Shown here: in pieces, positions 20,130-60,387 of the stretch
Layout: each line of letters starts with the position of its first letter
How positions within the stretch are numbered: the stretch's first letter is position 1
NCBI GenBank assembly: GCA_965645245.1
Contig: OZ287067.1
Coordinates: 868,001 to 932,000 of the forward strand
DNA length: 64,000 nucleotides
DNA from: Massalongia carnosa
Taxonomy: Eukaryota
Reading direction: 5' to 3'
Translations under genes and position numbers: made by a program
The notes under the pieces: model-generated
What the model was told of the DNA's origin: nothing
Seen by the model: the letters and a program-made list of their open reading frames with translations, nothing else
The model's database searches: none

Positions 20130-20290
20130 GGGAGCAGGGCCGCTTTAGAGGGAGCAGCGAGGGAGCAGCGAGGGAGCAGGGGGGAGCAACGAGGGAGCAG
20201 GGGGGAGCACTGAGGGAGCACTGAGGGAGCAGCGAGGGAGCAAGAGGGAGCACTGTGGGGCAGTGCAGGGGCGCAGCAGGTGGGAGCCTG
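20130..20290 (+). repeat. Subterminal GGGAGCA array, distal end of Starship 1
   Basis: 11 exact GGGAGCA copies at 20130, 20150, 20161, 20172, 20182, 20193, 20203, 20214, 20225, 20236 and 20246, then degenerate copies; 10-11 bp spacing. Confidence 0.9.
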
Positions 20291-20806
20291 AATTGGCTGC
20301 CCTGTACCCGGCTATAGCTGCTCGCATTATTTATGACGTTCGTCAGCACTGCTGCCTGGCTCAGCCTCCTGCTGCCTAAGTTAATCAATGGGCGAAGAGG
20401 AAGGGAAGAAAATGTGGCGTTTTGATATGAGATGACGGAAACACGCAAGTTGAAGCCAAAAATTTGTCTAGCACTAAAACGAAAGCAAAGGATCTTCTTG
20501 AATGAACATCAGATGCGGAAGTCGGAAGCCATATGGAGTATTCTTCGTGATGCTATAAGAAGCGCTATAACATACGATGTGTTATTTTGGTATTACTGAC
20601 CATGCGTTGCACTCATCGGGATAGATAGGTTTCAGCTATGTAGAGAGTCTATCGTGAGACTACAGCTGTCTGGCCCAGGGACTTCGAACTTGCTCCCATT
20701 GCGATCACAAGATAAGCCTGAATCTCCAAAGTGCAATTTATACAATGACAGAGCAAGGTGAGAAGAGAGAATGTCGACGCAACGCAGCTAAGGTTTTATC
20801 GAGCGT

Positions 20807-21205
20807 CTAAATTTTGCCGGCAGCACCATTCAAAATTTCGGTGAATTCCTCATAAGACGCATCCTCGGGAATTATCAAAACGGCAGCCTCAGCATGAGAG
20901 CCGTGTGTCCTGATCCAGTCTTTGATAGACTTCCGTTCCGCCTCGCTTGCAGCTTGCCATTTGAAAACATTTGCTTTCCTGGTGGCGCCTTTGGTTGCAC
21001 CTGGTCTGGTGTCGGGTATGGTCTTGGTTGTGTCGCTGAGATCGAAATGGAATCCAACATTCTTGAGTTCCCTCTGCGAGGTGGGCCACGTGGGTTTACC
21101 AGGTTTAGCTGTCGGATGAGTAAATTTCTGGGCCACCTTTTCGATGTTCTGCGGCTTGGTCATGAAAGAGACTGCACTTTTCGCAGCTCCTCCTAAACCA
21201 GACAT
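20807..21205 (-). CDS. Small hypothetical protein (132 aa), distal cargo gene
   Basis: ATG-initiated ORF with protein-like composition; no motif recognised. Confidence 0.55.
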   Translation of the reverse strand: MSGLGGAAKSAVSFMTKPQNIEKVAQKFTHPTAKPGKPTWPTSQRELKNVGFHFDLSDTTKTIPDTRPGATKGATRKANVFKWQAASEAERKSIKDWIRTHGSHAEAAVLIIPEDASYEEFTEILNGAAGKI

Positions 21206-21561
21206 GGTTGCTATGATTCTAGGGACCTGAGACGTTACAGTCAGACTTTGTGAATAGAAGGAATGGTGGAGAGCTCACTTGTCTGTTGCTGGTATCTTTT
21301 GGGGTTTCTGGGTTGAAATTAAGGCTGGTCTTTAGCCTCTGCTTGGGCGGTTGATCAGATGCATGTAAAGTATAATGGGGTTTGAGGCTCGGCAGCAGCC
21401 TAGGCAACCATAATGGTGATGTGTGAGTCACAAAGGCTAAAGAGGCGCAGACTTGGCCGCATCTGAGTTTGAGATCAGTCCAAATTGGGGATAGTCATAA
21501 TTGAGGCCTTTTATCCGGCGTTTTGTCGGTGCGTCATCCACCTTCAAATCCCCAGTTGATC

Positions 21562-23436
21562 ATGTCGTTGATAAATTTCACCCTTTCACGCACCATCCAA
21601 CTGACGTATCTCCGCAGATTCACAGTCGTATCATTATCTCCTCATCTGCACCGAAGTTGTTCGAGGGAGGCTCGAAAATATGCGCACATGGGCCCACCAG
21701 AAGATCATGCTTCTCCCAGTGACATATACGAACCATTCTTTCGGCATACTTCTCGGAGATGGATGTAAGCAACTCATACAAAGAATTGGCCGCGACCCTT
21801 CTAATACGGTTGACAAGCTTCAATGAAAAACAGCGCATGGCCGAGCGCTATGTTCGCTTCAATGTACCCGAATTGATGCGTACCGCAGCGATGGCGGTAG
21901 GAAGAGACAGATGTGTCGATATAATGAAGGTCACTGAAGGTGGTTTTAATAAGATATTTCTTCTTACGATGGATGATGGATACGAGGTGATAGCGCGGAT
22001 CCCTACACCTATCGCTGGACCGGCTCACTATACGACCGCGAGCGAGGTTGCAACCATGGACTTTCTCCGTGCTCGACTGGACATACCAACACCAAGGGTA
22101 TTTGCGTGGGCTTCCCGGGTTGGTGGCGATAACCCTGTCGGTGCAGAGTACATCATAATGGAGAAGATGCAAGGAGAAAGTCTTGCTTCCCGCTGGTTGT
22201 CGCTTTCCACGAAGGAACTCGCCGAAGTCATCGAGAAAATTGTAGATATCGAGAGTCGGCTCTTTTCAGCTCGTTTTTCGGAATACGGAAGCTTATACTA
22301 CAAAGAGGACTTGGAAGAAGAGGTTCGCGAGAATAAACCAAACGAGCAAAATGGAGTGGACCTTTTCTCTGGCCAATTTGATATCGGGCCTATCGCAAAC
22401 AGATCATTCTGGGCAGAGGAGCGGGACCAGATGACGTTAGACCGCGGACCATGTTTGTTTCCCCGTATATGTCACGCAATACTCTACTGATCGAACCGTC
22501 ACAGGGATTCGCTCAGAGGATTATTTGACCTCTATTGGCAAACGAGAGGCGGCTTGGACTATTAAGCTTGGACAACCACGGCATAGACAATTCTTTTTCT
22601 CTTTCTCGGAGCAAAACATCGAACCAAAAGATCATATCTCCTTACTTTCACAATACGGTCTTGTGGCCCCATGTATTGAACCTAAACAAGAAGGCCTTGC
22701 CTCACCAACCCTCCGACATCCTGATCTCCACCAAAGTAACATCTTCTTACGTCCACAATCAACAGACATACTTGGTATTATTGACTGGCAAGGTGCTTCA
22801 ATACTTCCGTTCTTTCTTCAATCAGGATTTCCTGTTTTTTGTGACCACAACTCAGGGCGTCCACAGACGTTGGAGAAGCCGAAACTCAGCGATAATTTTG
22901 AGGAGATGAGTCCCGGAGAACAGCAAGAAGCTTTGATGGACTTGAAGCATAAACAAGCAAACCTTTATTACACAGCGGCTACGGGACTGAAGTGTAAACG
23001 TCACATGGAGGCGCTTCGGCTACCATACCTTGACATGCGGCAGTATCTGATCAAGCAAGCTGGCATGCCTTGGGATGGTGATTTAGTTAACCTTCGAGCA
23101 GCCCTGATCGGAGTCCACTCTAAATGGGACGATCTTGTTGGAGAACGTGCCTGTCCAATTTCGTTCACGGATGAGGAAGTGCGATTTGCAATGCAAGAGA
23201 GCAGAGAATGGAACGAAGCCGCCGAAGTGCTTACCACGATAAGGGATACGCTGGGTATCGATGGAGAGGGTGGCACGGATCCTGAGAATTACAATCGTGC
23301 TGCGGCTCTCAACAAGGAATGGAGGATACAAATGCTAAAAGAAGCAAAGGCGGAGGAGAAGGAGCGAAGTTGGCAGATATGGCCATTCAAGGACGATGGT
23401 GACGACTCTAAAGCGCCCACAGCTGTAAATAACTGA
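21562..23436 (+). CDS. APH/Aim9-like phosphotransferase (kinase-like fold), 2 introns
   Basis: FFRHTSRRW spliced to FNE..RYVRFNV; EGGFNKIF, ARIP, SEVATM, catalytic HPDLHQSNIF and IIDWQ. Introns at about 21765-21817 and 22453-22504. Confidence 0.85.
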
Positions 23437-23783
23437 CTATTCTATATGCCTGTACTTTCGAAATTGTATAAGGTCAACAACGACAGTTTAGCTGCATAGA
23501 AAAACCCCCCGTTGAACGTCCTGCCGTAAGCCGTGTAGATGTGAAGGCTTTTAAGAGTCTGCAGGCGGGAAGCTAAATACGACGAAGCAACTCGATGATC
23601 CGGGAATAGTCAAGATTATCCGGATTTATAAATACTCGTAGACGCCGACGGAATTCGTTCCACGATTGGCGACTACCCCACCATTGCGTTGCTTTTATCG
23701 GCCTTATAATAGCCTCACTTTAGTACAAGATAGCTCTGCCATAGTATGTTCCTCTAGTGACAAAGTTTTATCGACCCCAAGCC

Positions 23784-26700
23784 ATGCTCTTCCGAAACGA
23801 CATGGCAGAAATTGATGCGTTAGTACACCTATTTTGATACAGCAGGAAATGATCTGACCCTACTTGTGTGGCAGTAAGCCTTGCTTCGATTTCAGGCGTG
23901 GGAAATGCAGATACGGAAATAGATGCAAGTTCACTCACGAGTCCAAGCCCACTTCAAAAGCGCCTCATCGCGAACCATGCCCATACTTTGGGACATCGAA
24001 GGGTTGCTTTAAAGGGCAGCAGTGCAAATTCTCGCACGAAATCGTGGCAGGTAAAAATGGTGCCACAACACAACCACCGCAGTCTACCGCTAGGCCACGA
24101 CCGCAAAGCGAACTCGAAACCGGCTTCCGAGAATGGACGTTCCTGATACCGAGGCAGAATACCCGGTTCCAAGTTGTGGAGGTTGGGAAGTTCTTCACAG
24201 TGGGCTGGGACCTCACCAGCAAAGAGCATACAGAAATTGGGCAACAGATTATTAAGAAGCTAGCAACTGAGGAAGGGCTGGCCATGATCAAGGCCCTTGC
24301 AGATGAAAAGCTCGATGGCGTCAAGCTAGAAGCGAGCCTGCGTATCTTTAAGGACAGAACGCTTCCCTTTTTCCGAACCATCTCTCACCCGGACATTCTA
24401 TCGTCCTTGATATTGGAGACACCGCTCGACACCATTTACACGTTTATTTTTGGCCCAAACGGTCGTCGTGCTATCAACTTGTTCAAATCTACGACTTCCG
24501 CTCTTGGAGCCCTTGCGCGGGAGGAAACAGCCAAAGATGAAGACCTGACGTCGATTGCGGTAACAGCGAGCTTAGCGGTGCTAGAGAGAATCGTGGAGTT
24601 AAATCAAAGCGCCCAGGTCATTACGGAGCTCACGTCGATTGTGAACGACTTTTCAACCTCAATCCCAGAACAACTTCTGCAGGCCGGAAGTCGAAGCTTA
24701 GCTCGTGTTCGCCAACGACTTGGTCTTGGAGCTGCAATGCCTTTGTCAGGAGGCCGCCCTCTAGAGCAGAAGAGCCATCGACCGGTCTTCGAAGTAGGTC
24801 AAGACCTTCCTGGCGCGTTGTCGGAGCTAGGTCCACGACACGACAACGATCACGCAAATATCTTCGACATCAAGATCCTGCCGACTACCGAAGAAATTCA
24901 ATCCCCCCGATTGGAGTATCTACCTTCGAGCGATCCTACGAAGCACCATCTTCCTGGTCTGGCGGGCTTACTCGACCGACAATTCAGACTTTTGCGTGAA
25001 GATACAGTCGGTCAACTCCGCGATGCAGTGCAGATGGAATGTAAGCGGCTTAACAAACCCCCTAATGCCCAACCGCCATCAAAGCGACAGAACAATGGCG
25101 TTCGAAATATCATCTATCACAATGTCGCTCTGCTTCGACTTGAGTTCGATCGGAAGAAAGGGCTCCAGGTTGTGGCTGAGTTTGACCAACCTCCCGCACT
25201 GGCGAAGAAGGGAGCCAAGGAGCGAGAAGAGTGGTGGAGGAATACCAAACAGCTACAGATCGATGCTTTTGTATGCCTTGTCTCTTCCACAGGTCGTGCT
25301 ATCTTCTTCTCTATTTGCGATCCTACTCCGACGCCTCCGCCAAAGAAGAAAAATGGTGAGGAAGAACGTGAGGTTCGATCAGCCGGATTTTGGAGGGCCT
25401 TCGATGAGCGGCCGAATCTTTTCAAGCATGCAGACCGAGCCACGTTAATGCTAAGCCCGGTCGAGGATGATTCGGAAGATGTCACTTGGATCAACAATCA
25501 CCTCGGAAAGGCTCACAAGCTACGACGGTCGCTTGTCGAGTTCCCAGGAATTCTACTACCGTCCTTCCGACCGACGCTGCAAGCACTTCAAAAAATGAGC
25601 CGCACCCTTGATCTCCCTTTCGCTCAATTTGTCGCCCCCGATACACAACATGCAGGAGATGTCGACATACCTGCCCCTGCGTACTCTCGCACGCCTGGCT
25701 TTTCCTTCAATCTGGAGACCTTGGCTGGAGGAGAGCAGCTGAGACTTACACCCGGACAGCCTTTCGGCGATACCACACTCCATGAGAAATCTACACTCGA
25801 CGATATGCAGCAGCTGTCTACCATAAATGCATTAAGAAGCTGTCTTGCGCTAATTCAAGGCCCACCAGGTACCGGCAAGAGCTACACTGGTGTCGCTATC
25901 ATCAAGGCCTTACTAAAAAATCGCAATGCAGCTAAGCTCGGGCCAATTATCTGTGTATGCTACACCAATCACGCTCTCGACCAGCTTCTCGAGCATCTAG
26001 TTAAGGATGGCGTAGAGCAGCTCATCCGTTTAGGATCGAGATCGAAATCAGAAGTTCTCCAAGACTTGAACCTCTACCATATATCAAAGGAAATCAGGCC
26101 CACGAAGGTTGAAGGCCATGAGAAATATCAACTCTATGAAAAATTAGATATCGCTCTTGATGAAATTGAGAAGCTCATGCCAGGTCTTCGGGATCCAGCG
26201 CGCTGGAGCAATATCAAAGATTACCTCGCAGGGCACCACAACGGTCACTTCGAGCAACTTTTCGGACGGGGAGTTGACGAGCATGGATTCCGGGAGGTAC
26301 GCGGTAAGAAGTTCAATATTTTGCATAGTTGGATCCACGGAGCGCCCAAGCGCATTGCTTCAACTCGCCCAGTCCCGGAACTTCTCGGTGTCAAGTTACA
26401 GGAGATGTCTGGCTCCGAAAGATTGGCGTTGCACAGGTACTGGGTCCGACAAAACACCATGGAACTCACCCGCAGTTTCCTACACGTTCTCGACTCATAC
26501 CGCCATATCAATGATTCGCTCAAAAAATGCCACCAGGAGCTAGACCTGCGTTGCCTACTTCGCGCACACATTATTGGTGTTACAACCACAGGCCTGGCAC
26601 GAAATTTAGATATCCTCCGCCGAGTGCGAGCAAAAGTGGTGGTATTTGAAGAGGCGGGAGAGGTATTAGAGGCACATACCCTCACCGCACTCCTGCCTTC

Positions 26701-29700
26701 CGTCGAGCATGCCATTCTCATTGGGGATCACGAGCAGCTAAGGCCCCAGATCAACAACTACGAGTTCCAATACGACAATCCTAGGGGTGCAAAATTCTCT
26801 TTGGATATCTCGCTTTTCGAACGACTGGTCCATCCTCAATCTGGTTATCCGCGGCTTCCTTACAGTTCGCTGGAGGTTCAGCGTCGGATGCATCCATCGA
26901 TCGCGGAGCTGGTTAGGTCCACGCTCTATCCTAAGCTGCAAGATCACCCATCAGTATCCACGTATCCAGAAGTCGACGGAATGCGGAAACGCCTCTTCTG
27001 GCTCGATCACAACAAGAGGGAAGATGCTTCCCCCTCGAATACAGTGCAGTCATTTTCCAAGACTAATGCTTGGGAAGTAGAGATGACAGCTGCTTTGGTC
27101 TCTCATCTCGTCCGCCAAGGAGTCTACCGGAACGAAGATATCGCAGTCCTGACTCCTTATCTAGGACAGTTGCAGAAGCTCAAACAGCGCCTACGATCCT
27201 CCTTCGCGATCGTGGTCGGTGACCGAGATCTCGAAGATTTGGAGGCGAAGGGACTGGAGGGTGATAGTGAAGAAGAGACGACTGCAAATCAAGGTAATGT
27301 TCGCAAGACAACGTTGCTGAACGCTTTGAGGATCGCTAGTGTGGACAACTTCCAGGGAGAAGAGGCGAAAGTCATTGTCATCTCATTGGTCCGGAGTAAC
27401 GACGAAAGGAAGTGTGGATTCCTGAAGACGTCGAATCGTATCAACGTCTTGCTAAGTCGCGCCCGCCACAGAATGTATATCATCGGCAACACACACACCG
27501 CACGTCCTGTTCCTATGTGGGATAAGGTTATCACGATCCTCGAGAACGACGGAAACATAGGTAATACTCTAGCGCTATGCTGCCCGCGACATAAAGAAAC
27601 CCCAATCGAGGTGTCGGAGCCCGACGACTTTTCTATCTTGTCGCCCGAAGGTGGCTGCAACAGAAAGTGTATCTCACGACTTAGATGCGGACATGCCTGT
27701 ATCAATAAATGCCACTCGGAACCGCTGCATAATGCTGTTCGGTGCCTGGAGCGCTGCCAAAGGGTCAAAAAAGGCTGTGATCACGCCTGTCCGAAGTTTT
27801 GCGGAGACCCCTGCGATTCGAAATGTCAAATCCAGATGCCGAATATCGCCTTGCCTTGTGGGCACGTTCAAACAAGTTTGGCATGCCACCTTGCACAGGC
27901 TCCGGAAGCTGTTCGATGCCATGTCTTGGTTGAAGCTGTTATGCCAGATTGCAAGCATACTGTAAAGGTTCGCTGCTGCGAATTTCCACTTGCAGCAGAT
28001 CACCCATGCAACGCTACATGCGGGGCCGCTCTCGGGTGTGGCCACGACTGTAAACGGATTTGCAAAAATTGCAACCCAAGAGGTGAAGACGGCCATATCT
28101 CGGAAATTAATCACGGTGTCTGCAAGACTCAATGTAGTAGACAGTACACCACTTGCAGCCATGCGTGCTCAGAGGCATGCCATGGGGATAAGCCATGTCG
28201 GCTCTGCTTGGAGCCGTGCGAAGTTCGGTGCAGTCACTCGCGTTGCAGTAAGAAATGCCACGAGCCTTGTGTGCCTTGCGTCGAAAACTGCTCTTGGTCT
28301 TGTCCACATCGCGGCGCGTGCAAATTGCCATGTGCGGTGCCCTGTGACCTGCTTCCGTGTTCCCAACGCTGTTCGTTGCCGCTCAGTTGTGGTCATGAGT
28401 GTCCTTCTGTCTGCGGAGAAATATGTCCAGAGGCCCGATACTGTCAGAAGTGCGCCGATAAGTCGGTGAAGGATACGATGGTTGATTACATCATGGGATC
28501 CACCTACGCCGAGATTGATCTAGACGAAGGCCCTTGTATTATACCATCTTGTGGTCACATCCTCACCTTAGAAAGCATGGATGGCCACATGGAGATCGCA
28601 AAATACTACATCATCTCTGATGACACCAATGGTGAGAACTCAATTATCGGATTGAAGTCGAGGTCGGTTCCGTTCTCGACCTCGGAGCTGAAAAACTGTC
28701 CTATGTGCCGTAGCCCTCTTCGCAATATCAATAGATATGGCCGCATAGTTCGACGAGCGTGGATCGACGAGGCGACTAAGAAATTTGTTGTTTGGGCAAA
28801 CGCCCAGTTTGTTCCCTTGGCCTCCAGAATGGAGCAGGCAGAGGCCAAACTTCGAGAATCCGTCACTGAAAAGCAAGCCCCCAAATCTCCGCTGCCTGGA
28901 CAAGCGGAGCTATCTTCCGCGCTTGACAAGCTTTCCCTCGAGCAAATTGGGCTTACCGGTTCTCGTGATCAACAGATAAAGGTAGTTCTCAAGGCCTGCA
29001 AAGCAAACCCTAGATACAAGGATGTATCATGGCTCCGCAATGAAATTAAAAGATTCCTCAAGGAAGTTGATGAAGCAGAACAACCCATTAGCCGCATTCA
29101 TGATCTCGTACAAGACGCGCGTAAACATCGTGGTGTCAACACCGAAATCATTGACTTGCCGTCCGTTCTTCAAGTCCACAACAGGCTCCTAGCAACAGTG
29201 CTACTCCTCCGTTGCGACTATGCCATACTCTCCGATTTCGTCACTCACGGCTGCGACATGGCTTCAGGCGGAAATCTTGGGAACGTGTGTCTCAACCTTG
29301 CCTCAAATCGAAAAGATTGCGAGAACCTAATGCAAGAGTCGCGATCCCGGCAACAACCGGCTCACGAAGTGGAGAGTCTCCTGTACTGGGCCCGCTTCGT
29401 CGCCCTTGAGCGCAGCCGCTCTGCCAGCCTCTCGGACGCAGACACGATCGCGCTCGTCGACCGCGCCCGAGACCAACTCCACCTCGCTCGCACCATCTGC
29501 AAAACCAACCCGGGTCAAACAGCCGGCATGTCGGAGGAAGTGTCCGCAGCGGAGAAAATGCTGCGCGACTCGACATTCTACGCGCCGGTGACGAATGTGG
29601 AGAAGGCGGCTGTGTACGCTGCCATGGCGCAGAGCTTTCAGGGTACGGGCCACTGGTACTACTGCGCCAATGGGCATCCGTTCACGGTGGGCGATTGCGG

Positions 29701-29827
29701 CATGCCGATGGAGACGTCCAGGTGTCCCCAGTGTGGGGCTACTGTGGGTGGGGCCCACCATCAACCTGCAGACGGGGTTAGGCGGGCAGAAGACTTGGAA
29801 GCGGAGTTTGGGAGGCGAGGCCGGTAG
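23784..29827 (+). CDS. ZNFX1/NFX1-type SF1 RNA helicase with CCCH fingers, NF-X1 Zn-finger array, RING-like region and C-terminal RZ-type finger (about 1,995 aa)
   Basis: Two N-terminal CCCH fingers. Helicase motifs QGPPGTGKS, EEAGE, IGDHEQL, DNFQGEE and NVLLSRARH. Cys/His-rich CGH repeats, CIIPSCGH..CPMCR, and terminal GHWYYCANGHPFTVGDCG..CPQCG. A short first exon starts at ATG 23784. Confidence 0.92.
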
Positions 29828-32696: not shown

Positions 32697-32783
32697 GCAT
32701 CCACAACTGGAAGCATCCGGAATTGGCGACATCCACAAATAGCGACATCCAGAAGTGGCGGCATCCAGAATTGGCGGCACCCA
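32697..32783. repeat. Short imperfect tandem array (about 16-bp unit, CATCCAGAATTGGCG-like)
   Basis: 5-6 imperfect units read directly. Confidence 0.6.
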
Positions 32784-34774: not shown

Positions 34775-35236
34775 GTAACGTCCGTCCCTGGGTCGAGAGA
34801 CGCACCCCGTCGAGAGACGAATCATAGGTACTTTGGATTCGGGCGACTCTAACTCTGTGAACGCATCGAAATTTCCCGTAGTTTCGTATCAATCTCGTTA
34901 TGCGGCCACTCCCGAGCACTCCTTACCCGGCTACTCCAAGAATTACGATCGCGTCGTCGCCTTCGCGCCCGGTTACTGAGAGCATCCTTTTATGGTGTAT
35001 CAAGACCCCTCGACCCATAGCACCACCATCGAGCTCTTTTCGCCTTTTGAACTCATAGGACGGTTGATCTGGGTTTCCCAATCTCACTACAATGTTGAGA
35101 AGTTATTGTCAGCCTTGTGACGGGCGTGGCGCTCTGTGTTTTATGGCGTTACCATATCGGTTGGTACCTCGTATTTAGCGATTAAGGATTCCTGGTCGGG
35201 GGAAGACATCTCGGTACATCCCGTGTAATAATTACG
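34775..35236 (+). repeat. Dispersed internal repeat, copy A (about 460 bp; inverted relative to 53323-53776)
   Basis: Begins GTAACGTCCGTCCCTGGGTCGAGAGACGCACCCCGTCGAGAGACG. Aligned by eye to the reverse complement of 53323-53776 along its length. Confidence 0.8.
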
Positions 35237-42573: not shown

Positions 42574-43461
42574 GGCGTCTACATTGCTTGCAGTAGTTTG
42601 CTATCGAGAGTGATATCGTGTTTGGGTTATCAATGACGATTTTCAAAGTTTCATGAGTCGCTTGAAGATGAATTGACTCTTTCTTTGGGACGAATCTACA
42701 GTTTGATCATCATTAGGTATAATGAATAAAGGATGAGGAGAATTGCTTACGGTAGCAGACGAGCGCAGCCTCGCGGCGTTTATAGCTAGCCTAAGATATC
42801 CGCAGTATGGTGCAGTTTAGCCTCGCGTCAGCCACAGTCCTAAACAGCCACAAAGCTTGCCAAATGATTATATAGCGTTAGGTGAAATTTTATTGTAATT
42901 AGCAAGAGAACGTGCGGGGTCGTCTCGTACTAACCAAATGTTGAATATCCAATCCCTACCAGCACAATGAACACCTATCAGTACGATGAACATAGCACCT
43001 ACGGCTGCCCTAGATGGACAGATCATCTACGGAAACCGTAGATGCCGCATTAGGCTTAGTCCCAAGATAAGATAAGATCACCTCGCTTAGAAGGGGGTGA
43101 CCAGTAATAGGAAAAGATTGCTGCCTAGCAACTCTTCATCCTTAACATCACGGTCATACATACCTTTATTATTACATAGCCATATAGCCATAGTCATATA
43201 CCTATTTCAACAGGTTATGAGCCCGGAAGGGTGCTATCGATTTAAACGAATCGAAGCTTTTAATCCGCAGCATCGCAGTGCAATCAGCTAAGCATCGTTC
43301 CTATTCAATGAATCGTAGACACATGACTAAATCTTTCTGTGTCTTTAGAAACGATCCCTTAAATCACATCAATCAGTTCTCTCTTCTGTACACAGCGATT
43401 TCTTGTCAGAAGCACAAAAACTGCGTGTTAGAAAGAGCATGAACACATTGATCGTACTACA

Positions 43462-44719: not shown

Positions 44720-45210
44720 AAAAAAGTATATTGCTGGCCCTGAGCGCCCCATTGGTTCAAAAATCATCAAAGCGTCAGTTTCACCCGTGGTTGAGTTCTG
44801 GACACGCAAAAAATACAAAATCCCTCGGACATCAAAGAGCTTAGTAAACTCATTGATCGAAGGCACAAAGACCTTTCTTTTTGGCAATTATGCCTCCTTA
44901 AGGCACTAGATGAGATTGTGCGGCAGTTGCCTCTTATTATTTAACCGGCCTAAGGCCGGTTAAATCAAATTGGAATAACCCTGCGCTCAATTTGCTTTTG
45001 GTCAATTGGACCCTTGAAAAAGCCGAAGTTGAAATTCTCATCATGGCAAACAAGCATGTTAAGCAAACAGGTTTCTCTGTTGAGACATCAGAGTGGACAC
45101 TGGCTAAGGAGGGACTGTTTTTTCCTTGTCTATAAGAAAGGTCACAGATCCACATTCTTTCAGTCACTACTAAGTTTCTCGCCTTGTTCAATTGCTCCCC
45201 ATTCTCCCAT

Positions 45211-48200
45211 TATGCCTATCATAGATACGTCACATCTTTTGGAGAAAGCCGAAAGATATTCGGCATGGGCAAGCTATACGAAGGGCATTCTGCTTAAGAA
45301 CAACTGCGAAGGAGCCATTCTGGAGAGTCAATCAGAAATCACCGCTGAAACCATCAAGGAAGGTTTAATACAAGCAGGCTTCGACGCCAAAGGTCTTTCA
45401 GTCAGCATCTTGGTAAAAGAACTGCGTGACTAGAAGAATAGACAGAAGGCCGAGATGACCAAGGCTATAGGAATCATTCACGGATTAGTTGCGGAGTGCC
45501 ATTACAGCCTCATCGACAACAAGAATGTGGCAGAAATGTGGAAAATCCTGAAGGATAGATTCCAAGATATAGCACCAATGAGCATCAGCGACATCATTCT
45601 GAAGGTTAGTTCCAAGAAGATGACCGACTTCGAGACGACCAGTCTATACTGTGCATATTACGAGAGCGCTTTAAACAAGATTAAAGGAATGCTGGACGAC
45701 AAGGCCAAAGTGGATGTGCATACCGTGGAGTTTATGCTTAAGGGAATGATGCTGGGTAACACCAGACGTCTATTCCCCATTGATAGCCCAACTTCGACGA
45801 GATTGAACATACGAAACCACAAACCTGTCGGAAGCAATGAAGACCATTATTGCTTATTATGTCAACATGAAAATCACCAAGGCACTTCATATCAGCACAC
45901 CTGACTCAAGAGGTCGAGCCCCATCAGGGAACTGCACCTTCTCTTAATGTGTCAAGAGAAAGAACACTCATCATTGGCTAGATACCTGTTTGCAGAAGTT
46001 TCCACAGTTAAAAAGACATAGAAGTTCGCTCGAATCCGGAAGAGCAAAGGAACAAAAGACTACCTCGTTAGAAACGAAGGCGGACTTATCTCATACATCA
46101 ACCAACATTCCAACGACCATTGACACTCCAGATTTGAGGATGCATTTGAGCAAAGTGGACGAGGACACCTATCAAGGACTGGACGTCATTATCTGTCAAA
46201 TCAAAACTCACTACATGGCTTGGAAGGCTTGGTCATCTCAACATAGCAACGTGTCGAAAATATCTGAAAACGCTAGACATAACGTACGATGACGATATCA
46301 ACCACGGTTGGTTTTGCCATGCATGCGAAATGGGAAAAGCCAAAAAGATATACAACCGAACACGGCAAGAGAAGGCCACAGAGCTCTTTCAAAAGATAAA
46401 CTCTGACCTAGTGGGACTAATCAAGCCATCAGGACTTCTTGAAGAACTTTACCTCTTCACTTTCACCTGTGATGCTAGCAGATACACTCATGTCTATACC
46501 GGACACAAGAAGAGTGAATGGTTTGATCACTTGTTGACATACTACAGCATGGCTCAAAACAAATCCGGAAAGGCTAAACTCATAAGCAGTTTTCGCACTG
46601 ACTTCGGCACGGAGCTTCGCAGTCACAAGTCAGACGTTTGGTCCTTGGAACAAGGCATAACGTTTGAAACAGCTGCTCCATACTCTCAAGATGAAAACGG
46701 AGTCGCGGAACGAATGGGCAGAACCATCATGGACATGACAAGATGCAGTGTCATTGCCGGAGACATTCCAGACTACTTGTGGGCAGAAGTGGTTCTAGCC
46801 ATGGTTCACACCAAGAACGTCAGACCAACCAACGCCTTAGCAGGTAAAACCCCGTATGAGATCTTCGAGAAGAAGTCACCTAAGCTGGATCACCTGAGAA
46901 TTCTCGGATCTACAGTCTATGCATTAATTCACGAAGAAGAGCGAAAAGGAATAAACAGCAAGGCTGCTAAATTTTCTCCGAGGGCTCAGAAAGGAATCCT
47001 GTGTGGATATGACAGAAGCACCATCTATCGCGTCTTTATGGAAAAAGACTACAAGGTCATCAGGGTCAAGGACTTACGAATTCATGAAGACGCCACATTC
47101 AAAGATGGGACCGATCTACCCTCGTACGACTCAACATATCATCAAGCAATGAACTCCAAATACGCAAACGAATGGAGTCAGTCTGGGTAATGGATGAGAT
47201 CAAAAGTCTGCTGGAGAATAAAACCTGGGATACATTACCTACCGAGTCCATGGAACCCGGACATATAGTCTTAAGTGGCAAATGAGTATTCAAGCTGAAA
47301 CGGGACGTAAATGAAAAGATCGTTCACTTTAAAGCCAGATGGGTTGTCAAGGATATCTCCAACAATACTGAGTAGATTTCGATCAAACCTTTGCATCTAT
47401 GGTCAAACAATGGCTTTTCGCTTGCTATTCGCGTTAGCTGCTCATCACTATCTGCACATCGAGCGACTGGATATAGTGACAGCTTTTCTGTACGGTCTCA
47501 TTATCAACTCATCTATGTCCACATGCCGAAAGGATATGACACAGCTGGCATGGTGTGTAGGTTGAACAAAGCCCTGTACGGTTTGAACAGTCTCCGCGTC
47601 CCTGGTATGAACGACGGTCAGCTTTTCTATTGAGAAAATTAGGATTGGAGAAACTCCACGCAGATCATAACATTTTCATCACACCTCAAGGGATAAAAGG
47701 ACACATTGTTACCTCTTTCGTTGACGATTTGAACATCATAGGCCCAAAGGGTTCCCCGATGATCACCGAAGTCAAGAAACAGCTCAAGCTAGCTTTCAAG
47801 ATGGTAGACATGGGACCAATCAGCTACTATCTAGGCCTTAAAGTCGAACGAGATCGAGTCAACAAAACTATAAAGCACTCCCATGCGAGAAGGCTGTCTC
47901 TTCATCAATGAATTTCAGGACTCCGACAAGGACATAAAGCAATATCAAACCATGGTCGGATCCATCACGTTCGCAATGATAGAAACCAGGCCAGACATAG
48001 CTTTCGCAACGTCCGTAATCAGTCGAAATGCAAAGAATCCAGGCAAAACACATGAAAGCGGCCAAACACATTCTCAGATACCTTAGCGGTACCAAGAATA
48101 GAGATATCACCTTCGACAAATAGCAGCGAAAATCCAACTGGGGTTATGTGTTCATGCTGAACAATGGACCAATAAGCTGGTGTTCCAAAAGACAAATAAC

Positions 48201-48591
48201 CGTCACATTGTCATCAACCGAAGCAGAGTATATGGCACTCACCTTAGCAGCAAAGGAGGCAACATGGCTACGTTTACTGATGACCGAACTCGGATTGATC
48301 ACTTCTGATGACGGATCCCCGACAATAAACGTGTTAAGAGGAGAAGGCACAATTGCATTGAAAGGCGACAATCAAAGCGCCATAGCACTGGCCAATAACC
48401 CCGTATTACACTCCAGGACCAAGCATATCGACATTCAGCACTACTTTATACGAAACGAGGTGCTAGAAGGAAGAATCGACCTCACCTATGTTCCGACCGA
48501 AGACATGATTGCAGATGGACTGACAAAAACCCTCACGCACGTCAAGTTCTTCTCCTTTATCAGACAGCTCAACATGGACAAACAGACATGA
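45211..48591 (+). pseudogene. Copia gag-pol remnants (gag, rve integrase, RT fragments, RNase H)
   Basis: Integrase SDLVG..RTDFGTE..ENGVAER, RT FVDDL and RNase [26 protein letters not shown]. Multiple stops, frameshifts and deletions. Confidence 0.9.
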
Positions 48592-49031
48592 GAGGTAAAG
48601 AAGTTCAACCACGGTTGAATCCACGATGGAAACAAGTACTGGTAGGACTTGAGGGGGGGTGTTGAATATCCAATTCCTACCAGCACAATGAACACCTATC
48701 AGTACGATGAACATAGCACCTACGGCTGCCCTAGATGGACAGATCATCTACGGAAACCGTAGATGCCGCATTAGGCTTAGTCCCAAGATAAGATAAGATC
48801 ACCTCGCTTAGAAGGGGGTGACCAGTAATAGGAAAAGATTGCTGCCTAGCAACTCTTCATCCTTAACATCACGGTCATACATATTACATAGCCATATAGC
48901 CATAGTCATATACCTATTTCAACAGCTTGATATTATAGAAATTATTTTCCAGTAAGACTGTGCCTCCGCTTGCTTGATATGATCTGACGTGAACCATTCT
49001 CAACCATCAATACCGAAAATAAAAGTCCCCT

Positions 49032-49080
49032 TAACATCCGTCCCTGGGTCGCGAGACGCACCCCGTCGCGAGACGAACCA
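49032..49080 (+). repeat. Dispersed internal repeat, short copy B (about 50-bp core)
   Basis: TAACATCCGTCCCTGGGTCGCGAGACGCACCCCGTCGCGAGACGAACCA matches the start of 34775 and the reverse complement of 53727-53776. Confidence 0.85.
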
Positions 49081-49950
49081 ACAATTTGGACATCTAAAAT
49101 CTCTCCCTTGCAAGTCTATGGAGATATGGTTGGTAAAGGACTTTTTTACAGCCTTTTCTCCTCCTGGACACCCTTCTTCAACGAAAATTACCGCGGTGTT
49201 GGTCATGCTGTCGCTCGTTCGGTTGACGCCATCAATTGCCGCTTCAGCTTTTTCCCCCTGCTAGATCACGGTCAGTCACATATTTTCGGTTTTCGGAACC
49301 ATACGTAGTAGTATGATAGTCCCATGAAGAAAGAATATAGCTCCAAGCTTTAAACATACATATAGAAGTCTCGCCGTGCAAGAAAGGGTGGCGACGGCCT
49401 CGCGCCTTGGGGCGATATTATAGCGTACCTTGGCGTGCATTAGTTTATCTGCTCAATACTGTATTTTTGGTATTATATCATGCCATCCCCTTTTCGGTTA
49501 GGATGACTGTGGCGCACCGTGGTAGGTTTCTAGAAGCGTCCATGGGGAGGCACGTGCCCACTTTCTTTGCGCCTAACTTAAAGGGGGTTCTTGGCGAGAG
49601 CGAGTAGCTTAGCGAGGGAAAGAGCCAGCCAGTGAGCCAAGTAGCATTACACATGCAGGTTCGCCTAAGATCTCACGCACTTACTATGGCAGTGCTTTAG
49701 TGCATGAAGCTAGTGATTATGGACCGCTACTTCCTGGCACGAGATCAAGCCTCATTCCGCCCGTATTGGCTGCCTCACGACCGGCAATTCTTGCAAACTC
49801 ATACTACAATCGACATTCTTAAAGATCCGTCGCCTTGGTTGCGAACTTCGACGGCCGTTTTCGATTCTGCAAAAAGTCTGCGATCGGTTCTTCACTTCGA
49901 CAATTCTCTTAGTTTGATCCGATTGAGAATACGGCTGCGCACAAAACACC

Positions 49951-52116
49951 ATGGAGCACCTCCTGTGTGATGAGGAACTACGTAGGCGACGTCCAAGTAT
50001 GGCAAGAGTGAAATGGCTGGGGTTTGACCACGATTCAAATGGCGAGTATGAAAGGGGCTCCATCCAAGAATACCCTCTGCGCCGAGGTTGGACCGCTATA
50101 GAGATCGATGATCTTAAGAAATGCAAATTGCCAAGTCATCGCTCACTTAAAGATTCCCTCGCTATGCTGCAAAGTTGGATGAGTCTTGGCCTCATGGAAT
50201 GCTTCTTTGGACAACCATTCGCCAGTTCCCTTTTTGTCTCCCAAGTTGGAAATACAGAATTCTTCCACACCAAGCACCTGCGAGGTTACATTGACGATTG
50301 GCAGACTCGCAAATTGCCTTCGTTCCCTCGCCTAGTGATGCTCATGTTCGAGGGTTGCATCACGGACGCCCTGGATGAGGCCCAATCTTGGAACCACCAG
50401 CTGGTCCTCACACAGCGCTTGTACAAAGACCGTAGCCTCTTTGCGGATCGTGCGCTTTTCGATTCGGTGATTCGATTGACTACATTAGTTGGGGAGGCTC
50501 TACAAGCTCTAGCGGAGAGATTTCCTACGTCCAGAAGCAGATTCGCTATGGGGTACGAATGGTTCATCTCAGACGGCAATGAACAGCGACTGCATACCCA
50601 ACTAGAAAGACAAGGTTGGTGTCCGTCAATATACAGGATTCTTATCAAAGGCCTCCGTATGCCATTGTCACTATTGGAATATGCTAGCCTCGTTCGACCA
50701 GCCGACGCAGACCTTCGTATGCACGAGCGCTGCTCATTGCATGATTGTGTAGGATACAATTTGGACAACAAGACGTATCGGACTGAGCACATCTTTAAAG
50801 GCTGCCAATGCAAGCCTTTCTTGTTGCCGTCCCTCTTGAAGACGAGAGATATTCTTCTCGATAACGATGTTCCACTTATCAATGGAGATGTCTTGTTACA
50901 ACGCAGCTCTGCAGAAGGCTCTGTGTCTCGTGCCGGCTCTGGTCTTCGTTACGTAGCCTTTTCTCACATCTGGTCTGATGGTCTCGGCAGCTGTACAGAA
51001 GATGGTCTGCCCCGGTGCCAAGTAGAGGCCCTATGCAATATGGCAATGGAAGTTGGGAACACGTCTCAATTCTGGATTGATTCTCTTTGTATCCCAAGAG
51101 ACGTTCGAACGAGGAAGCGAGCTATCTCACAGATGGCGAAAACCTATCGGAATGCGTGCGCAACGATAGTCCTTGATAATCGAATCAAGACATGCAGCGC
51201 ACAAGACACCAAAGAAGAAATCATGCTTACTTTAGCATCGTCTGTGTGGCAACGGAGACTTTGGACCTTACAAGAAGGTGCGTTATCTAATAGAATGTAC
51301 TTCAAGCTGGCAGACTCATTTCTGCACGATGGGACGCTCCTGGACAATGCGGGTCCAGAGGCGTATAAACCGATCATCAGAAATTGTATCTCACACCTGG
51401 ACAATATCAGTGCTTGGGCTCTTGTTGGTGATGTAACTATTGGCGCAATGCAACGCAACATATCTCATAGAACGAGCAGTACACATGACGATGAGGCTCT
51501 GGCAATGGCCTCTTTGCTAAATCTGGATGTCTCCGACATCTCTCGATTACTCGATGTCGACGGCGAGGAGCGGATGATACGCTTCTGGTCCATGGTTCCC
51601 TCGATTCCCCGAGGCATAGTAATACTGGGGGGCGCAAGAATTAAGCAGGAGCCATTCCAGTGGGCACCGAGATCGCTGATGAGTAGAGAAGATCAAGGAT
51701 CAATGGACAAAAGGGACGGGAGTGCGAAATCTACGTCAATGGGCTTGTTAGCGACCTGGTATATCTATACAGTCACAAAGGGCGTGCTTGTGAATCTCGC
51801 TGTCGATCAAGCTCACTTCTACAATGCACAGACGAGCGCTGTTCTTACTGTCTATCCCGATAAGGAACGCACAGTCGAACCATTTCACTGCCACGTGGAT
51901 GCGATCTTGTGTCTTGACAGCCTGCCAGTCAGCGACCGCGAGACAGCTGGTGTTGTTCTTTCATTCGTCAAGACGTCTGGCCGCCGCAAGGTATACAAGT
52001 ATGAGAAACTATGTCCAGTCTGCTTGCATGATAATGAGCCAGCAGAATTCATCAGATTTCTAAAGCAAGAAGAACAAACCGTCACAGGCGCCATGGAAGA
52101 GCTGGTTATATCTTAA
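49951..52116 (+). CDS. HET (heterokaryon incompatibility) domain protein, 721 aa
   Basis: HET motifs YVAFSHIWSDGLG, FWIDSLCIP, AISQMAKTYRNA..VLD and WQRRLWTLQEGAL in an intact ORF. Confidence 0.9.
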   Translation: MEHLLCDEELRRRRPSMARVKWLGFDHDSNGEYERGSIQEYPLRRGWTAIEIDDLKKCKLPSHRSLKDSLAMLQSWMSLGLMECFFGQPFASSLFVSQVGNTEFFHTKHLRGYIDDWQTRKLPSFPRLVMLMFEGCITDALDEAQSWNHQLVLTQRLYKDRSLFADRALFDSVIRLTTLVGEALQALAERFPTSRSRFAMGYEWFISDGNEQRLHTQLERQGWCPSIYRILIKGLRMPLSLLEYASLVRPADADLRMHERCSLHDCVGYNLDNKTYRTEHIFKGCQCKPFLLPSLLKTRDILLDNDVPLINGDVLLQRSSAEGSVSRAGSGLRYVAFSHIWSDGLGSCTEDGLPRCQVEALCNMAMEVGNTSQFWIDSLCIPRDVRTRKRAISQMAKTYRNACATIVLDNRIKTCSAQDTKEEIMLTLASSVWQRRLWTLQEGALSNRMYFKLADSFLHDGTLLDNAGPEAYKPIIRNCISHLDNISAWALVGDVTIGAMQRNISHRTSSTHDDEALAMASLLNLDVSDISRLLDVDGEERMIRFWSMVPSIPRGIVILGGARIKQEPFQWAPRSLMSREDQGSMDKRDGSAKSTSMGLLATWYIYTVTKGVLVNLAVDQAHFYNAQTSAVLTVYPDKERTVEPFHCHVDAILCLDSLPVSDRETAGVVLSFVKTSGRRKVYKYEKLCPVCLHDNEPAEFIRFLKQEEQTVTGAMEELVIS

Positions 52117-53322: not shown

Positions 53323-53776
53323 ACAGTAATGATTACGCGGGATATGCCGAGTAGGGCAAAGGCTTCTTCATCGTGGCTTGGCAGTACCAACCGACGTGGC
53401 GACGCCGCATGTCATAGCGCCTCACAGCCGCCATAAGGCTGACAACGACTTTTCAGCGTCCCTATATGATTCTAGGACTAGGGTAAAGGTCATTCACGAT
53501 TTCCGACAGTGGTACAAGCTTAATGGTGGTCCTATGGTGGACGAGTGCTGTTATTCCACCAAAAGGGTTATCATCGTAAATTTAGGGGGCGGCGACGATG
53601 CGAATGTAAATTTCCAGTAGCTGCTCACAGAACCGTTCAGAATTGGCCGCATCACAAGACTGATGCAAAAATACGGGAGACTTCCATGCGTTCACAAATT
53701 AAAGTCGCTTGAAATCAAAGTACCTGTGGTTTGTCTCGCGACGGGGTGCGTCTCGCGACGCAGGGACGGACGTTAC
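53323..53776 (-). repeat. Dispersed internal repeat, copy C (inverted relative to copy A)
   Basis: Reverse complement GTAACGTCCGTCCCTGCGTCGCGAGACGCACCCCGTCGCGAGACAAACCACAGGTACTTTG.. aligns with 34775-35236. Confidence 0.8.
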
Positions 53777-56847: not shown

Positions 56848-59800
56848 CTATGATGGGGGAATAGCAGGCTGCGAAATGGACTCGTTGAGCAGTCTCGGGT
56901 CGATAGATAGGGGAAGGTCGGAGATGACTGACGCCGGCGTCGTGTCATCGAGTGCGGTCTCGTCCGAGGTCCAATCAATTGACGAAAGCGGGCTTTCAGA
57001 GCCTGTGAAAGATGCTGCGGACGAACTTCGCTTCTCCTGATTTACTACCGAGTCGATCGAAGGAAGAGAGTAACTTTGACTAAGGCTATTTTTATCTTCC
57101 AGTCTCACTGGTCCAGTCCGAACGATAATGTCGAGTGGCTCGAATATTGGCGAGTCTATTGTTTTATTGATATGCTTGTAAGAACTTTCCTCGTTCAGGA
57201 GGTCACAACGGTACTCCAGCTTGACGTTCGCGCCGGTAAGAGCCCTCACATTCAGAGAAGACTGACGTGTTAGGCGGCGCCTTTTGATCGGATCGAGCTT
57301 GATGCGCTCAACGCAGTGTACATCCTGACAGTGACACTGAAGATCTTGAATCGAGTCGAAAGAAAGTGCACAGCGTGGATCAGGACATGGGACTACCTTG
57401 CTTTCACCCGTTTCCACGGATCGGTTGTACCTGTCTTCGAAATGCCAGAAATGTTCTTGCAGGTGCTCTTTCCAGCTCTGTTTAACGAGGAACTGATGGA
57501 AACGTTTCGTTGGTGAGAGCTTCAAATCGAAGAGACAGAAGAGACACTGCCCAGCAGTAGCAAGGGTTCGGCGGAAGACAAGTGGATTGCATTGAACTGG
57601 GAGCGTCTCGAGGTCGGTGAGATGGCGTTGACAGTGCTCAAACCATCCGGTCCCACTGGTGATCCATTCGTCGCACTGAAAACAGAGCTCGGCAAAGCCG
57701 TATTTCCTTTCAAGGTCGCCCTTGTGGCAACGGTAAATATGTTCCCACCTATCGCCCATACTGATGCTGTAGAATCGAAGGGTGGTCAGCCAGTCCGCAA
57801 CAACTGAGCATATGGGAAATTAGAAAGGAGAAGCAGACGAACCGATCCATATCCCTCGCACATTGGGGTACAGGGCAACGACCGTTTGCAGGCCGCAAGC
57901 TTGGACGATAGGCTACCCGCGGATTTTCTTTGCACAACGTGATCATATCCTGAAGTGCGCTGCGGCCCTGCATACTGCGGAGGGGAACGTTGAGGAAGAG
58001 CAAAGACGCCAGCCGATCACGTGGCGGATCCAAACGGCGAATCCGGTTGAAGTAGCTTGGCAGACTTGCGACTTGAGGTGCTTCATCCTCCGTGGTTGAG
58101 GCAATCTTGCGTGGTTGAATCTGCTGCCATTTGCTGAGCTCCTCGGACACGAGCTGGCGTTTTCGCCAATACAGTTCCTCTCGTCGAGCCCGAGCTGGCT
58201 GGGCTTCATCTTCTAACGTGATGCCCCGAAGCTTCTCTCCCAGTATTTCGATCTCCTTGTTGATGGAGACGAAGTCGGCACAGTGATCCAGGTTGGCTTC
58301 GACCTTTGCGGGTAGCGATTGCAACAGCTGAGGATGGTGATGGAGCGATAGCCCGCGAAATCCTTCAAGATGGACGGTGCGGCGTTTTTTGTTCCAGTAA
58401 CTCGCCATACCGTCCACAGTGCTCAGCTCAGGCGCGTATGAGCCAAAGAAAGTATCTGCGTTGTTATGGCCGGCGAATTTCATCCTTTCGGCGATTGAGT
58501 AACCATTATCTTTAGCCGAGTCAGCGTGTCTCAATGGTCGTGGTTCGTCCGTAAGAACTTACCATCGGCTTTGACAAGGGCTTCTCTTCGAATATCATGT
58601 ATCCCAATATTTTCCTCGTACCCGGCGCGATGCCCCAGATCTACTGTCCGATTACTGAACGAGCCCGCTCCATGAATCTTTCCTGTGGGTCCATCCGCAG
58701 ATACTATCTGGAAAAAAGGTACACGAAGCATGTCCTTTTTGATTCGAAGATGGTGCAAGGACCCATCCGCAGGTGGTGGAATCGCCTCGATCTCTTCGAA
58801 AGACCCATAGTCCTGGAAGGCATCATCCGCTAGGGCGATTGCCATCAAAGGTAGCACTGGGTTCGCAAATAGTGGCTCCATATCCTCATACATGCCATGC
58901 TGTGGCCTAGAATCACATCAAAACAGTCAGCAAGGATTGCTCTCAACCATGATCCCGAAGATTTGGACAGTGAAGTAACCTTTTATGCGGTGTTTCCGAA
59001 AAGCCTTTTGCGTCTCTTATGACTCGCACACCAATTTCCGCCTCCTCCTTTTCATTCTTGAAGATGACAAAGTCGATTGTCTGCTCGCAGCGTAAGCGCG
59101 ATGCTCGACTGCTTTCTTGGTCGGCAGTGCCTTATAGGATCAGTCCACTTACCTCATATAGTAGTCCACGGCCGGAGCCTCTGCGCATGTTCGATTTAAA
59201 ATACTCGCCTACTCGCGCCGACGAATAGATGAAAAGCATGTAGGCAGCGTGATCCTGGACGAGGATCCTTCCATGTCTGTATTGATGCCAATCCTTCATC
59301 CACATGTGTTTGATCACGATAACGAAGTGGTTCACTGTCATGAAGTGCCGAGTTCGCCGAGTTGTTGAAAGGTTGAACTTCTTGCGTAGCTCGGTTTGTA
59401 TGTACTTGTAAGATCATCAGCCCCTGCAGGTAGAGAGGAGGAGCAAATCGGAGACCGGGTACGAACAAAAAATGTAGACTCCGACACGTCAGGAGGAATC
59501 TTGTCGTTGCCAGGCCGCCGTTTCCAACCGGCGCCAAAGTCTGTCCATTTCTGAAGCATATAGTACATAGATGGTTCCTTCTCACCGGCACAGCAGCCGC
59601 GCACAACACCCTCCATGAAGTGCTTTGTCGTTTTCAAATGGTGGGGGCTTGCGCCAGGGTTTCTCCTTGCATATCTGTTCCAGCAAAACGAGACACAGTC
59701 AGTGAGAATTTTGCAGGACTTCGTAGCAATAGGGAGAGATGTGGAGACCTACTCGTCCCAAAGGACCAACATTCGGTTATAGTTAACTTCAGTACCGGAC

Positions 59801-59913
59801 TCGATGTGCTTAGAGACCGTATCGCCATCGATATCGGCGTTATTTAGAGACTCATGGCCATTTGATTCCGCATCATCGAAGAACTGCGCCGCAGTCCTCT
59901 TCTGCTTCACCAT
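56848..59913 (-). CDS. Starship captain: DUF3435-type tyrosine recombinase, 7 exons, about 880 aa, apparently intact
   Basis: ATG at 59913 (MVKQKRTAAQFFDD). The spliced path gives tyrosine-recombinase catalytic motifs SSARVGE (R), RDAKG (K), HDIRR (HxxR) and AGH..FFGSY (H, Y), then C-terminal C2H2-like fingers (CPVPQC, CFQC..HC..H, CPDPRC..HC..H). No stops were seen. Confidence 0.9.
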
Positions 59914-60265
59914 TGGAGACGAGGTAAAGGGGGAAATTGTAGCTAGACAAAGCTACCCTGGCCACTGAGGCGTATACAGCGAAGAGAGAAAGAGAGAGAG
60001 ATATGCAGAGTGGATATGAGATGATAACGTCTATAATGACGCGCTTGGTACACTGACGGGTTACTGCAGGACGCAGGCAACTAGAAGTGAAGGTAAAGAG
60101 TAAGAGGAAAAGAGCAAGAGGGCAAGAGCAGAAGATAACATGGTGGGCGGTCGGTGGAGCCATAACCGGCTCCTCTCTGATCAGCATCCAAAACAGGCTG
60201 ATTGGACGCTTTCGTTTAAACTTGTAAGAACGCATTAGCAGCTAAGGAGTAGGAAGTGGCTGAGG

Positions 60266-60387
60266 GGGAGCACGGGGGAGCAGAGAGGGAGCACGAGGGA
60301 GCAATGAGGGAGCAGGGGAGAGCAGCGAGGGAGCATGGGGGAGCAGAGGGAGAGCACATCGACGAAACGGGCGTTAGCGGGGGAGCA
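60266..60387 (+). repeat. Subterminal GGGAGCA array, captain end of Starship 1
   Basis: 8 exact GGGAGCA copies plus 2 GAGAGCA variants, mostly 10-11 bp apart. Confidence 0.9.

Follow-up and report, generated by a model that had tools for sequence, protein, structure and literature searches.

How captains, the recombinases of Starships, recognise both ends of an element across a distance of tens to hundreds of kilobases is the question raised by a 64,000-nucleotide stretch of the Massalongia carnosa genome (GenBank assembly GCA_965645245.1, contig OZ287067.1, positions 868,001 to 932,000), hereafter called the window. Here we describe element 1, a 40.4-kb Starship (20086-60443) bounded by TATATA hexamers, which carries a helically phased array of a short GGGAGCA-type unit inside each end. 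The presence of these arrays at both ends and their retention in related copies and small derivatives suggest that they are probably docking sites by which the element ends are recognised for moving. Coordinates are window positions unless a contig is given; the window is C1:868001-932000 of a 52-Mb genome in 25 contigs (G000).

Phased arrays inside both ends of element 1

At the distal end, an outermost GGGAGCA (20130-20136, plus strand) lies 20 bp ahead of a phased array of 10 units (20150-20252, plus strand). The intervals between the units, 11,11,10,11,10,11,11,11,10 bp, exactly reproduce those listed in an earlier reading made from the letters of this stretch alone (hereafter the sequence-only reading). 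At the captain end, the array (60266-60356, plus strand) consists of 9 units, two of which are GAGAGCA variants, at alternating intervals of 10 and 11 bp, and an outermost GGGAGCA is found 31 bp from it (60381-60387, plus strand), its GAGCA beginning 61 bp before the TA run. Exact GGGAGCA copies at this end are spaced 10,11,10,11,21,10,42 bp apart; with the variants included, the intervals become 10,11,10,11,10,11,10,11,31 (60266-60387). The same reading had assigned an equal 10-11-bp period to the captain end and had placed both arrays on one strand, and both statements hold, the first with the two variants counted and the second with both arrays on the plus strand. It had further stated that the array is kept in a second element, where we indeed find it on the minus strand (60518-60618; intervals 10,11,10,11,10,11,31). 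This element 2 starts at 60462, head-to-head with element 1 across a (TA)9 run common to both (60444-60461). Altogether, the window holds 32 copies of GGGAGCA compared to 7.9 +/- 2.6 expected, a number that was reached in 0 of 100 shuffles.

Genome-wide distribution of the arrays

The genome was scanned for three units spaced 10-11 bp, with half-turn-shifted and reversed patterns serving as controls. The scan yielded 72 phased triples, compared to 2 for the half-turn-shifted control and 0 for the reversed control. These triples form 24 loci, all of which are located at a distal-type or captain-type terminus, two of the 24 assignments (C2:3200073 and C17:1333599) being to degenerate termini. 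Twenty-three loci lie at most ~205 bp from the terminus, and the remaining one is found at 730 bp because another sequence has inserted. Seen from the ends, at least three sites are present in 24 of the 31 distal-type ends. The sequence-only reading had proposed a genome scan for phased GGGAGCA as a route to further ends and non-autonomous derivatives. Both were found, and the arrays were not common away from ends, all 24 loci being at one.

Upstream of 23 other captain loci in the genome, the true termini of which are not all mapped and most of which come from one related family, an unbiased scan found no phased array of any 5-mer. The phased 5-mer chain score was at most 2 at these loci, 8.5 and 9.5 at the two window ends and at most 3 in the other window tiles.

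The genome is unusually rich in Starships: it holds about 20 further DUF3435 captain loci, the majority of them close relatives within one family, and also a distant captain type in four copies. Four to five imperfect GGGAGTACTCCC palindromes, some of them 31-42 bp apart, were seen upstream of two captains of another family (L125:1569-1685 and L126:1349-1465). A 17-base captain-end pattern with 2 mismatches was also tried as an end finder and rejected as too loose (173 matches compared to 133 for the control).

Sequence of the unit and its distance from the junction

The array unit comprises about 9 bp, RRGGGAGCA, i.e. (G/A)(A/G)GGGAGCA, followed by 1-2 free linker bases. Units were chosen solely by a 3-base anchor and the presence of a second unit 10-11 bp away; in the 240 units so obtained, information content is 1.0-1.5 bits at the remaining core positions and 0.05-0.16 bits in the linker. 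Identity between units in the three window arrays is 0.77-0.84 in the core and 0.17-0.25 in the linker. Uniform decay of a tandem repeat yielded this contrast in at most 0.3% of simulations (P <= 0.003) under a simple star model that ignores CpG hypermutability. Distances between pairs of units fall at multiples of 10.5 bp out to 100 bp, with a best period of 10.6, and missing units leave gaps of 21, 32 or 42 bp. The number of units ranges from 6 to 15, varying on the gene side and often by 21-bp steps.

The position relative to the junction is far more constant. Distal ends have a site at offset +48 in 27 of 31 cases and at +68 in 25 of 31. From GAGCA to the TA run, the distance measures 61 bp in each of the metagenome captain ends tested (14 of 14); for captain-type ends of the genome, it is 61-62 bp in 9 of 14. 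In the genome count, 2 of 16 captain-end matches were distal arrays matched twice, which were excluded from the distance count and kept in the column statistics. Taken together, these data support the view that the arrays behave as selected binding sites of this element family. The suggestion of the sequence-only reading that they are binding arrays thereby gains ground, with end specificity, retention in relatives, a conserved core and a fixed junction distance pointing in that direction.

Captain-less elements and remnants carry the same ends

About 10 captain-less elements of 0.2-12 kb are bounded by the same ends and carry unrelated genes. Those of 1.9-12.4 kb are found on C1, C2, C3, C5, C10 and C17, two of them in tandem on C17 (L062, C17:525314-533552; further L058, L056-L057, L059, L055, L060 and L061). 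Their cargo includes HeLo, an alpha/beta-hydrolase-NACHT-ankyrin NLR-like gene, P450, kinase and ankyrin genes. The C10 and C3 copies share 81% identity over their full length, an indication of captain-free movement of the whole element.

Deletion between the arrays, which are direct repeats, is expected to leave single-array remnants of ~0.2-0.3 kb. Three remnants of 0.2-0.3 kb match this expectation, each having a single merged array between a distal and a captain-type terminus (L148, C3:216400-216900; L063, C3:2866700-2866980; L069, C15:1786230-1786410). The remnant at C3:216550 lies within a junction formed by two ends of opposite orientation. A supposed 9.5-kb pairing of ends on C15 was rejected because the right end belongs to a separate fused remnant.

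Junctions are head-to-head in the window and at L116 and tandem at L057, L062 and L103. Both orientations thus occur in the TA run, and therefore the arrays do not fix the orientation of the element to its target; in this sense, the earlier proposal that they give the ends directionality is not supported.

Persistence of the captain-end array in relatives

A metagenome scan returned 34 loci, 8 of them without upstream DNA, which left 26 for assessment, several being one insertion in different samples. The captain-end array is clear in 22 of the 26, being intact in 20 and mutated to GAGTA in 2; of the others, 2 show decayed traces and 2 have no array. The array is thus not absent from related ends, an absence that would have counted against the sequence-only reading by its own criteria. 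Since these relatives are close, the comparison tests persistence and not deep conservation. The insertions have 13 distinct flanks, all of which start with TATATA.

Captain relatives occur in Stereocaulon, Gyalolechia, Puttea and Exophiala, with one lichen metagenome among the sources, suggesting a lichen-type ascomycete as the host. The flanks of the captain ends found in metagenome contigs (L090-L123, 72-88% identical) have no match in this genome, and captains 71-73% identical are present in Exophiala (P0007-P0012). Horizontal spread among lichen-associated fungi is possible.

The ends of element 1 and the crossover

Element 1 is read on the minus strand, with its captain at the right end, and its ends match 31 distal-type and 14 captain-type ends of the genome. 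The TATATA direct repeat that bounds it lies at 20080-20085 and 60444-60449. At the distal junction, the TA run (20068-20085) has a TT break at 20079/20080, and its TATATA abuts the element. Genome-wide, TATATA immediately adjoins 21 of 31 distal-type ends, a T stands just outside it (the TT break) in 19 of 31, and every terminus examined abuts a TA run.

Inside the junctions lies an imperfect terminal inverted repeat. Its distal half, CCCCGAAC (20088-20095, plus strand), is a candidate core-type site whose columns are 87-100% conserved among 31 ends, in part by construction of the search motif. It recurs on the minus strand at 60432-60439 and on the plus strand at 60466. The captain-end half, GTTCGGGG-A-NN-C (60432-60443, plus strand), includes a hypervariable doublet just inside the captain end (60441-60442), of which 7 kinds occur among 20 ends. 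The distal TT break and this doublet may have their source in a mismatched overlap region; they resemble the coupling sequences of Tn916 and CTnDOT. The sequence-only reading had described the outermost motif as inverted, which is true of CCCCGAAC in element 1, but in several captain-less copies the array is retained while the captain-end motif is degenerate.

Between the captain-end array and the junction lies an RTCACRTG box (ATCACGTG, 60415-60422, plus strand), as in 19 of 25 captain-type ends. It is a candidate site for a host basic helix-loop-helix (bHLH) protein, boxes of this type being the site of Cbf1-type DNA-bending bHLH proteins. Folding of the element ends into hairpins was no better than for shuffles (z +1.0 and +1.4) with a tool that has no quadruplex model.

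In four sequencing runs searched over window positions 15000-24000, no contig bridging the distal junction was found. One run, X1 (15471-20198), represents a different flank allele, in which the distal end is present as far as 20198 and cover is lacking over 21.3-24 kb; this allele may have a deleted or a different element at the site.

The captain and its zinc region

The captain (56848-59913, minus strand) is the first gene and faces inward, its ATG lying 530 bp inside the right end. It has 7 exons, six GT-AG introns and an open frame of 883 amino acids. Tyrosine-recombinase-type motifs contain R187, K232, H344, R347, H370 and Y380. The DUF3435 match is weak in one captain exon (E 0.0005) and reaches E about 1e-17 in full-length relatives. 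An exon of the captain is 71% identical (158/221 amino acids) to EHY57132.1, which is listed as fam06 = Enterprise in the accessible part of a published supplement (PMC11162782). Judged by this nearest classified relative of its captain, element 1 is very probably an Enterprise-family Starship.

Four C2H2-like motifs (amino acids 567-728) form a C-terminal zinc region with conserved Cys/His positions. This region was modeled as one compact unit (pLDDT 93, pTM 0.84), and its last finger resembles classical C2H2 (E about 0.001). In fold searches with the model, the best Z was 4.1, and no Foldseek match at E <= 0.001 was obtained. Of 16 long proteins with this zinc region tested, 11 have a DUF3435 match. 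The structure model of a full-length relative (P0009) was poor (pLDDT 39).

Cargo, element 2 and a sister element

Element 1 carries helicase, HET, MYND, deaminase-like and DUF7924 genes, i.e. the large size and cargo of a Starship. The helicase is ZNFX1-like (AAA_11/AAA_12, RZ-type zinc finger; 23858-29827, plus strand), with homologues near the distal ends of a 49-kb sister element and at C1:1131647, and the HET-domain gene lies at 49927-52116 (plus strand). A copia-type long terminal repeat (LTR) retrotransposon is nested in the element (42939-48928, plus strand), with identical 224-bp terminal repeats and rve and gag fragments; it contains a 51-bp minisatellite in 25 copies (43465-44719). 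Dispersed inverted repeats in the cargo (34775-35167, 49032-49080 and 53384-53776; arms of 49-78 bp, 72-94% complementary) are probably small non-autonomous transposons.

The captain end of element 2 (60462-60618, minus strand) repeats the same arrangement, with CCCCGAAC at 60466-60473, a GTCACGTG box at 60483-60490, the outer site at 60518-60524 and a 7-unit array at 60549-60618. Its captain (60957-62023, plus strand) is broken: exon 1 contains a stop, and an LTR retrotransposon truncates the gene from ~62024 onwards. AT-rich, mutated gag-like open reading frames of this retrotransposon occupy 62300-63760, with a G-to-A pattern unlike classical repeat-induced point mutation. The far end of element 2 is probably C1:1131647, where the orientation is right and the helicase cargo matches.

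The 49-kb sister element is located at C1:3079918-3128920, and its captain is 95% identical in the exon searched. A hAT transposase open reading frame (669 amino acids) at 11249-13258 of the window has a near-identical copy within this sister element.

A probable role for the arrays in end recognition, and alternatives to it

On balance, we favour the explanation that the arrays act in cis as protein-binding sites through which the ends are recognised and synapsed, the captain being the most likely protein to bind them. In this view, they would mark both termini of a Starship lineage of lichen-type fungi that targets TA runs and belongs to the Enterprise family. A DNA-binding protein, most likely the captain, would load as several protomers along one helix face at each end and bring both ends together, upon which the catalytic domains would work on the inverted CCCCGAAC copies that surround TATATA. 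The circle released by excision would join captain-end array, core and distal array into one asymmetric attP-like site, and this site would recombine with an array-less TA run. With the recognition signal residing in the ends, captain-less elements could be moved in trans. The captain appears to be the likeliest reader: among the proteins of the element, it alone is available for captain-less copies to borrow, and the arrays are found nowhere else.

Several observations weigh against this explanation. The captain-type terminus pattern to which the 24 array loci were compared was partly written from these loci themselves. Fewer than three sites are present in 7 of the 31 distal ends, though these are possibly dead ends, and 5 of the 14 captain-type ends of the genome depart from the 61-62-bp distance (33, 41, 43 and two near 63). 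The captain-end DNA of the relatives is 72-88% identical to the window, and shared ancestry explains part of the conservation. A search of G000 for an empty site, made with the flanks of four (L090, L091, L098 and L109) out of the 13 distinct insertions in metagenomes, gave no match, so that evidence on this point is indirect and consists of the 13 different flanks that adjoin one and the same terminus; the searches made for a circle junction found none. The crossover is therefore placed solely by alignment of ends. The ends of the type Enterprise are reported, in the accessible text, without structural features (10.1101/2020.03.25.007153), in contrast to the phased arrays at both ends here. 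The zinc region poses a further difficulty: compared with tandem C2H2-DNA structures, its model gave no whole-domain match (TM <= 0.2), and the region is common to 421 representative proteins. The idea of the sequence-only reading that the array is read by C-terminal zinc fingers gains no support from these comparisons; the zinc region is real and conserved, but it is modeled as a compact unit unlike the tandem C2H2 arrays that read DNA, and the region is widely shared.

Additionally, the captain-end array lies within the captain promoter region, ~350-440 bp upstream of the ATG in element 1 and ~350-470 bp upstream in all intact relatives, with the RTCACRTG box adjoining it. The arrays could thus represent a homotypic site cluster for a transcription factor that drives the captain gene, the distal array joining the promoter in the circle only and boosting expression there. 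In Hephaestus, 3' sequence does raise captain promoter output in the circular form, according to the accessible text, but this effect required at least 699 bp of 3' DNA (10.64898/2026.09.21.753150). Moreover, the arrays are kept at both ends of captain-less elements, where there is no captain to express, and it is the distance to the junction (61 bp) that is fixed, while the number of units (6 to 15) varies on the gene side. We consider this main rival unlikely.

A somewhat smaller chance is given to a host protein. The arrays would then be occupied by an architectural protein of the host, or would serve to position a nucleosome, with the captain touching the terminal inverted repeat only. Nucleosome-positioning and bending signals typically show a 10.5-bp period, here seen over ~100 bp, and no shared accessory gene is found beside the captain, where homology between element 1 and the 49-kb sister stops at window position 56731. 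Such a role predicts phased clusters elsewhere in the 52-Mb genome, but none were found, and the specific 9-bp core exceeds what a dinucleotide signal needs.

Neutral minisatellites, expanded by slippage and carried along with the ends, are very improbable. The variable number of units, the 21-bp duplications within the arrays of L002/L076 and the closeness of the relatives would fit such an origin. Divergence is confined to the linker, however, and not uniform across the unit; the gaps of 21, 32 or 42 bp are not of arbitrary length; and two otherwise unrelated ends bear the same unit. Least credible of all are G-quadruplexes formed by the G-rich strand and aiding cleavage or regulation: 147 of 190 distal units contain G-runs of at least 3, the loops measuring 7-8 bases, but the commonest substitution, G2 to A (34 of 190 units), breaks the G-run, and the AGCA half is at least equally conserved.

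Returning to end recognition, we tentatively extend it by analogy, at a level of confidence well short of even. The captain might be a eukaryotic heterobivalent tyrosine recombinase, the zinc C-terminus of which polymerises on phased arm-type arrays. A host bHLH protein at the RTCACGTG box would bend the arm onto the core, like integration host factor for lambda, and the arrays would control excision versus integration. The ~0.2-kb end module would then be the frame of a mobile cassette: it would capture single genes (NLR-like, HeLo, P450, kinase), and the cassettes would insert in tandem or head-to-head into TA microsatellites.

The ends described here offer a concrete, mutable candidate signal, consisting of a 9-bp motif, a period and fixed junction distances, on an element with an intact captain. 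End recognition and directionality thereby become testable in existing mini-element and starmid assays. With the motif, element ends can also be located where neither an empty site nor a captain is available, which brings to light gene-carrying derivatives that lack a captain and escape captain-based pipelines. A recombinase that targets TA microsatellites and uses ~200-bp ends has potential use in fungal gene delivery.

Comparison with known systems

In the accessible parts of the literature, Enterprise-family Starships (family 6, PMC11162782; Enterprise/Spok block, 10.1101/2020.03.25.007153) resemble element 1 in their first gene, which encodes a DUF3435 tyrosine recombinase whose C-terminal region has zinc fingers, as well as in a short direct repeat, a palindromic target and scattered orphan ends (bufo, schoutedenella). 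In contrast to the TA run used here, their reported target is RGGTAG or 5S rDNA. Family 6 is defined by captain phylogeny and not by target, though, and the RGGTAG/5S target is stated to vary within it (PMC11162782, accessible text). As far as those sources extend, the Enterprise captain further differs by a CHROMO domain, which was not seen in the window captain, and the window lineage differs by its many captain-less, gene-carrying derivatives.

Hephaestus (PMC10104507; 10.64898/2026.09.21.753150) serves as a mechanistic template, with captain-driven, footprint-free excision, a circle and a mini-element moved in trans; circular intermediates were demonstrated in the second of these studies. 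It belongs to another family with the target TTAC-N7-A, and internal repeat arrays are not mentioned in the accessible parts of these papers.

Lambda-type integrases use asymmetric arm-type sites (PMC2817482, accessible part). Like the system described here, lambda Int, IntDOT and Tn916 Int are tyrosine recombinases with inverted core sites around the crossover and extra sites placed asymmetrically inside the ends, and Tn916 has AT-rich targets and non-matching coupling sequences (PMC2817482 and PMC5812530, in the parts accessible). Judged by sequence anatomy, element 1 too shows this layout: sites recur within both of its ends, and their positions about the inverted core sites are fixed and asymmetric. 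The bacterial integrases differ in having an N-terminal arm-binding domain, none having been identified in the window captain, and a few arm sites per arm, compared to 7-15 phased units here.

Hermes provides a parallel for the reading of the repeats. Short asymmetric repeats lie inside its ends at fixed positions relative to the tip, as here, and are read by BED zinc fingers of the mobilising enzyme (PMC10368747, accessible part), a candidate parallel to the captain's zinc region. Unlike element 1, Hermes is a DDE cut-and-paste element, and its 4-bp sites are described there as scattered and of mixed orientation, with no long same-strand phased array.

For Starships, the literature searched, which did not cover subscription papers, yielded no description of subterminal or phased arrays, of TA-microsatellite targeting or of end-binding assays. 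In the accessible parts of these reports, Starship ends are described by short repeats only, namely direct repeats of 2-16 bp and occasional short inverted repeats (PMC11162782, 10.1101/2020.03.25.007153, PMC13486527, 10.1101/2021.12.13.472469, 10.64898/2026.06.16.732702, 10.64898/2026.01.28.702382, PMC12289983, PMC13004909, PMC12153272). One automated annotation of a TATATA direct repeat (aspory8) is present in the accessible part of a Nucleic Acids Research supplement. Subterminal binding repeats are already familiar in other mobile elements, and the phased arrays at Starship ends are the new part.

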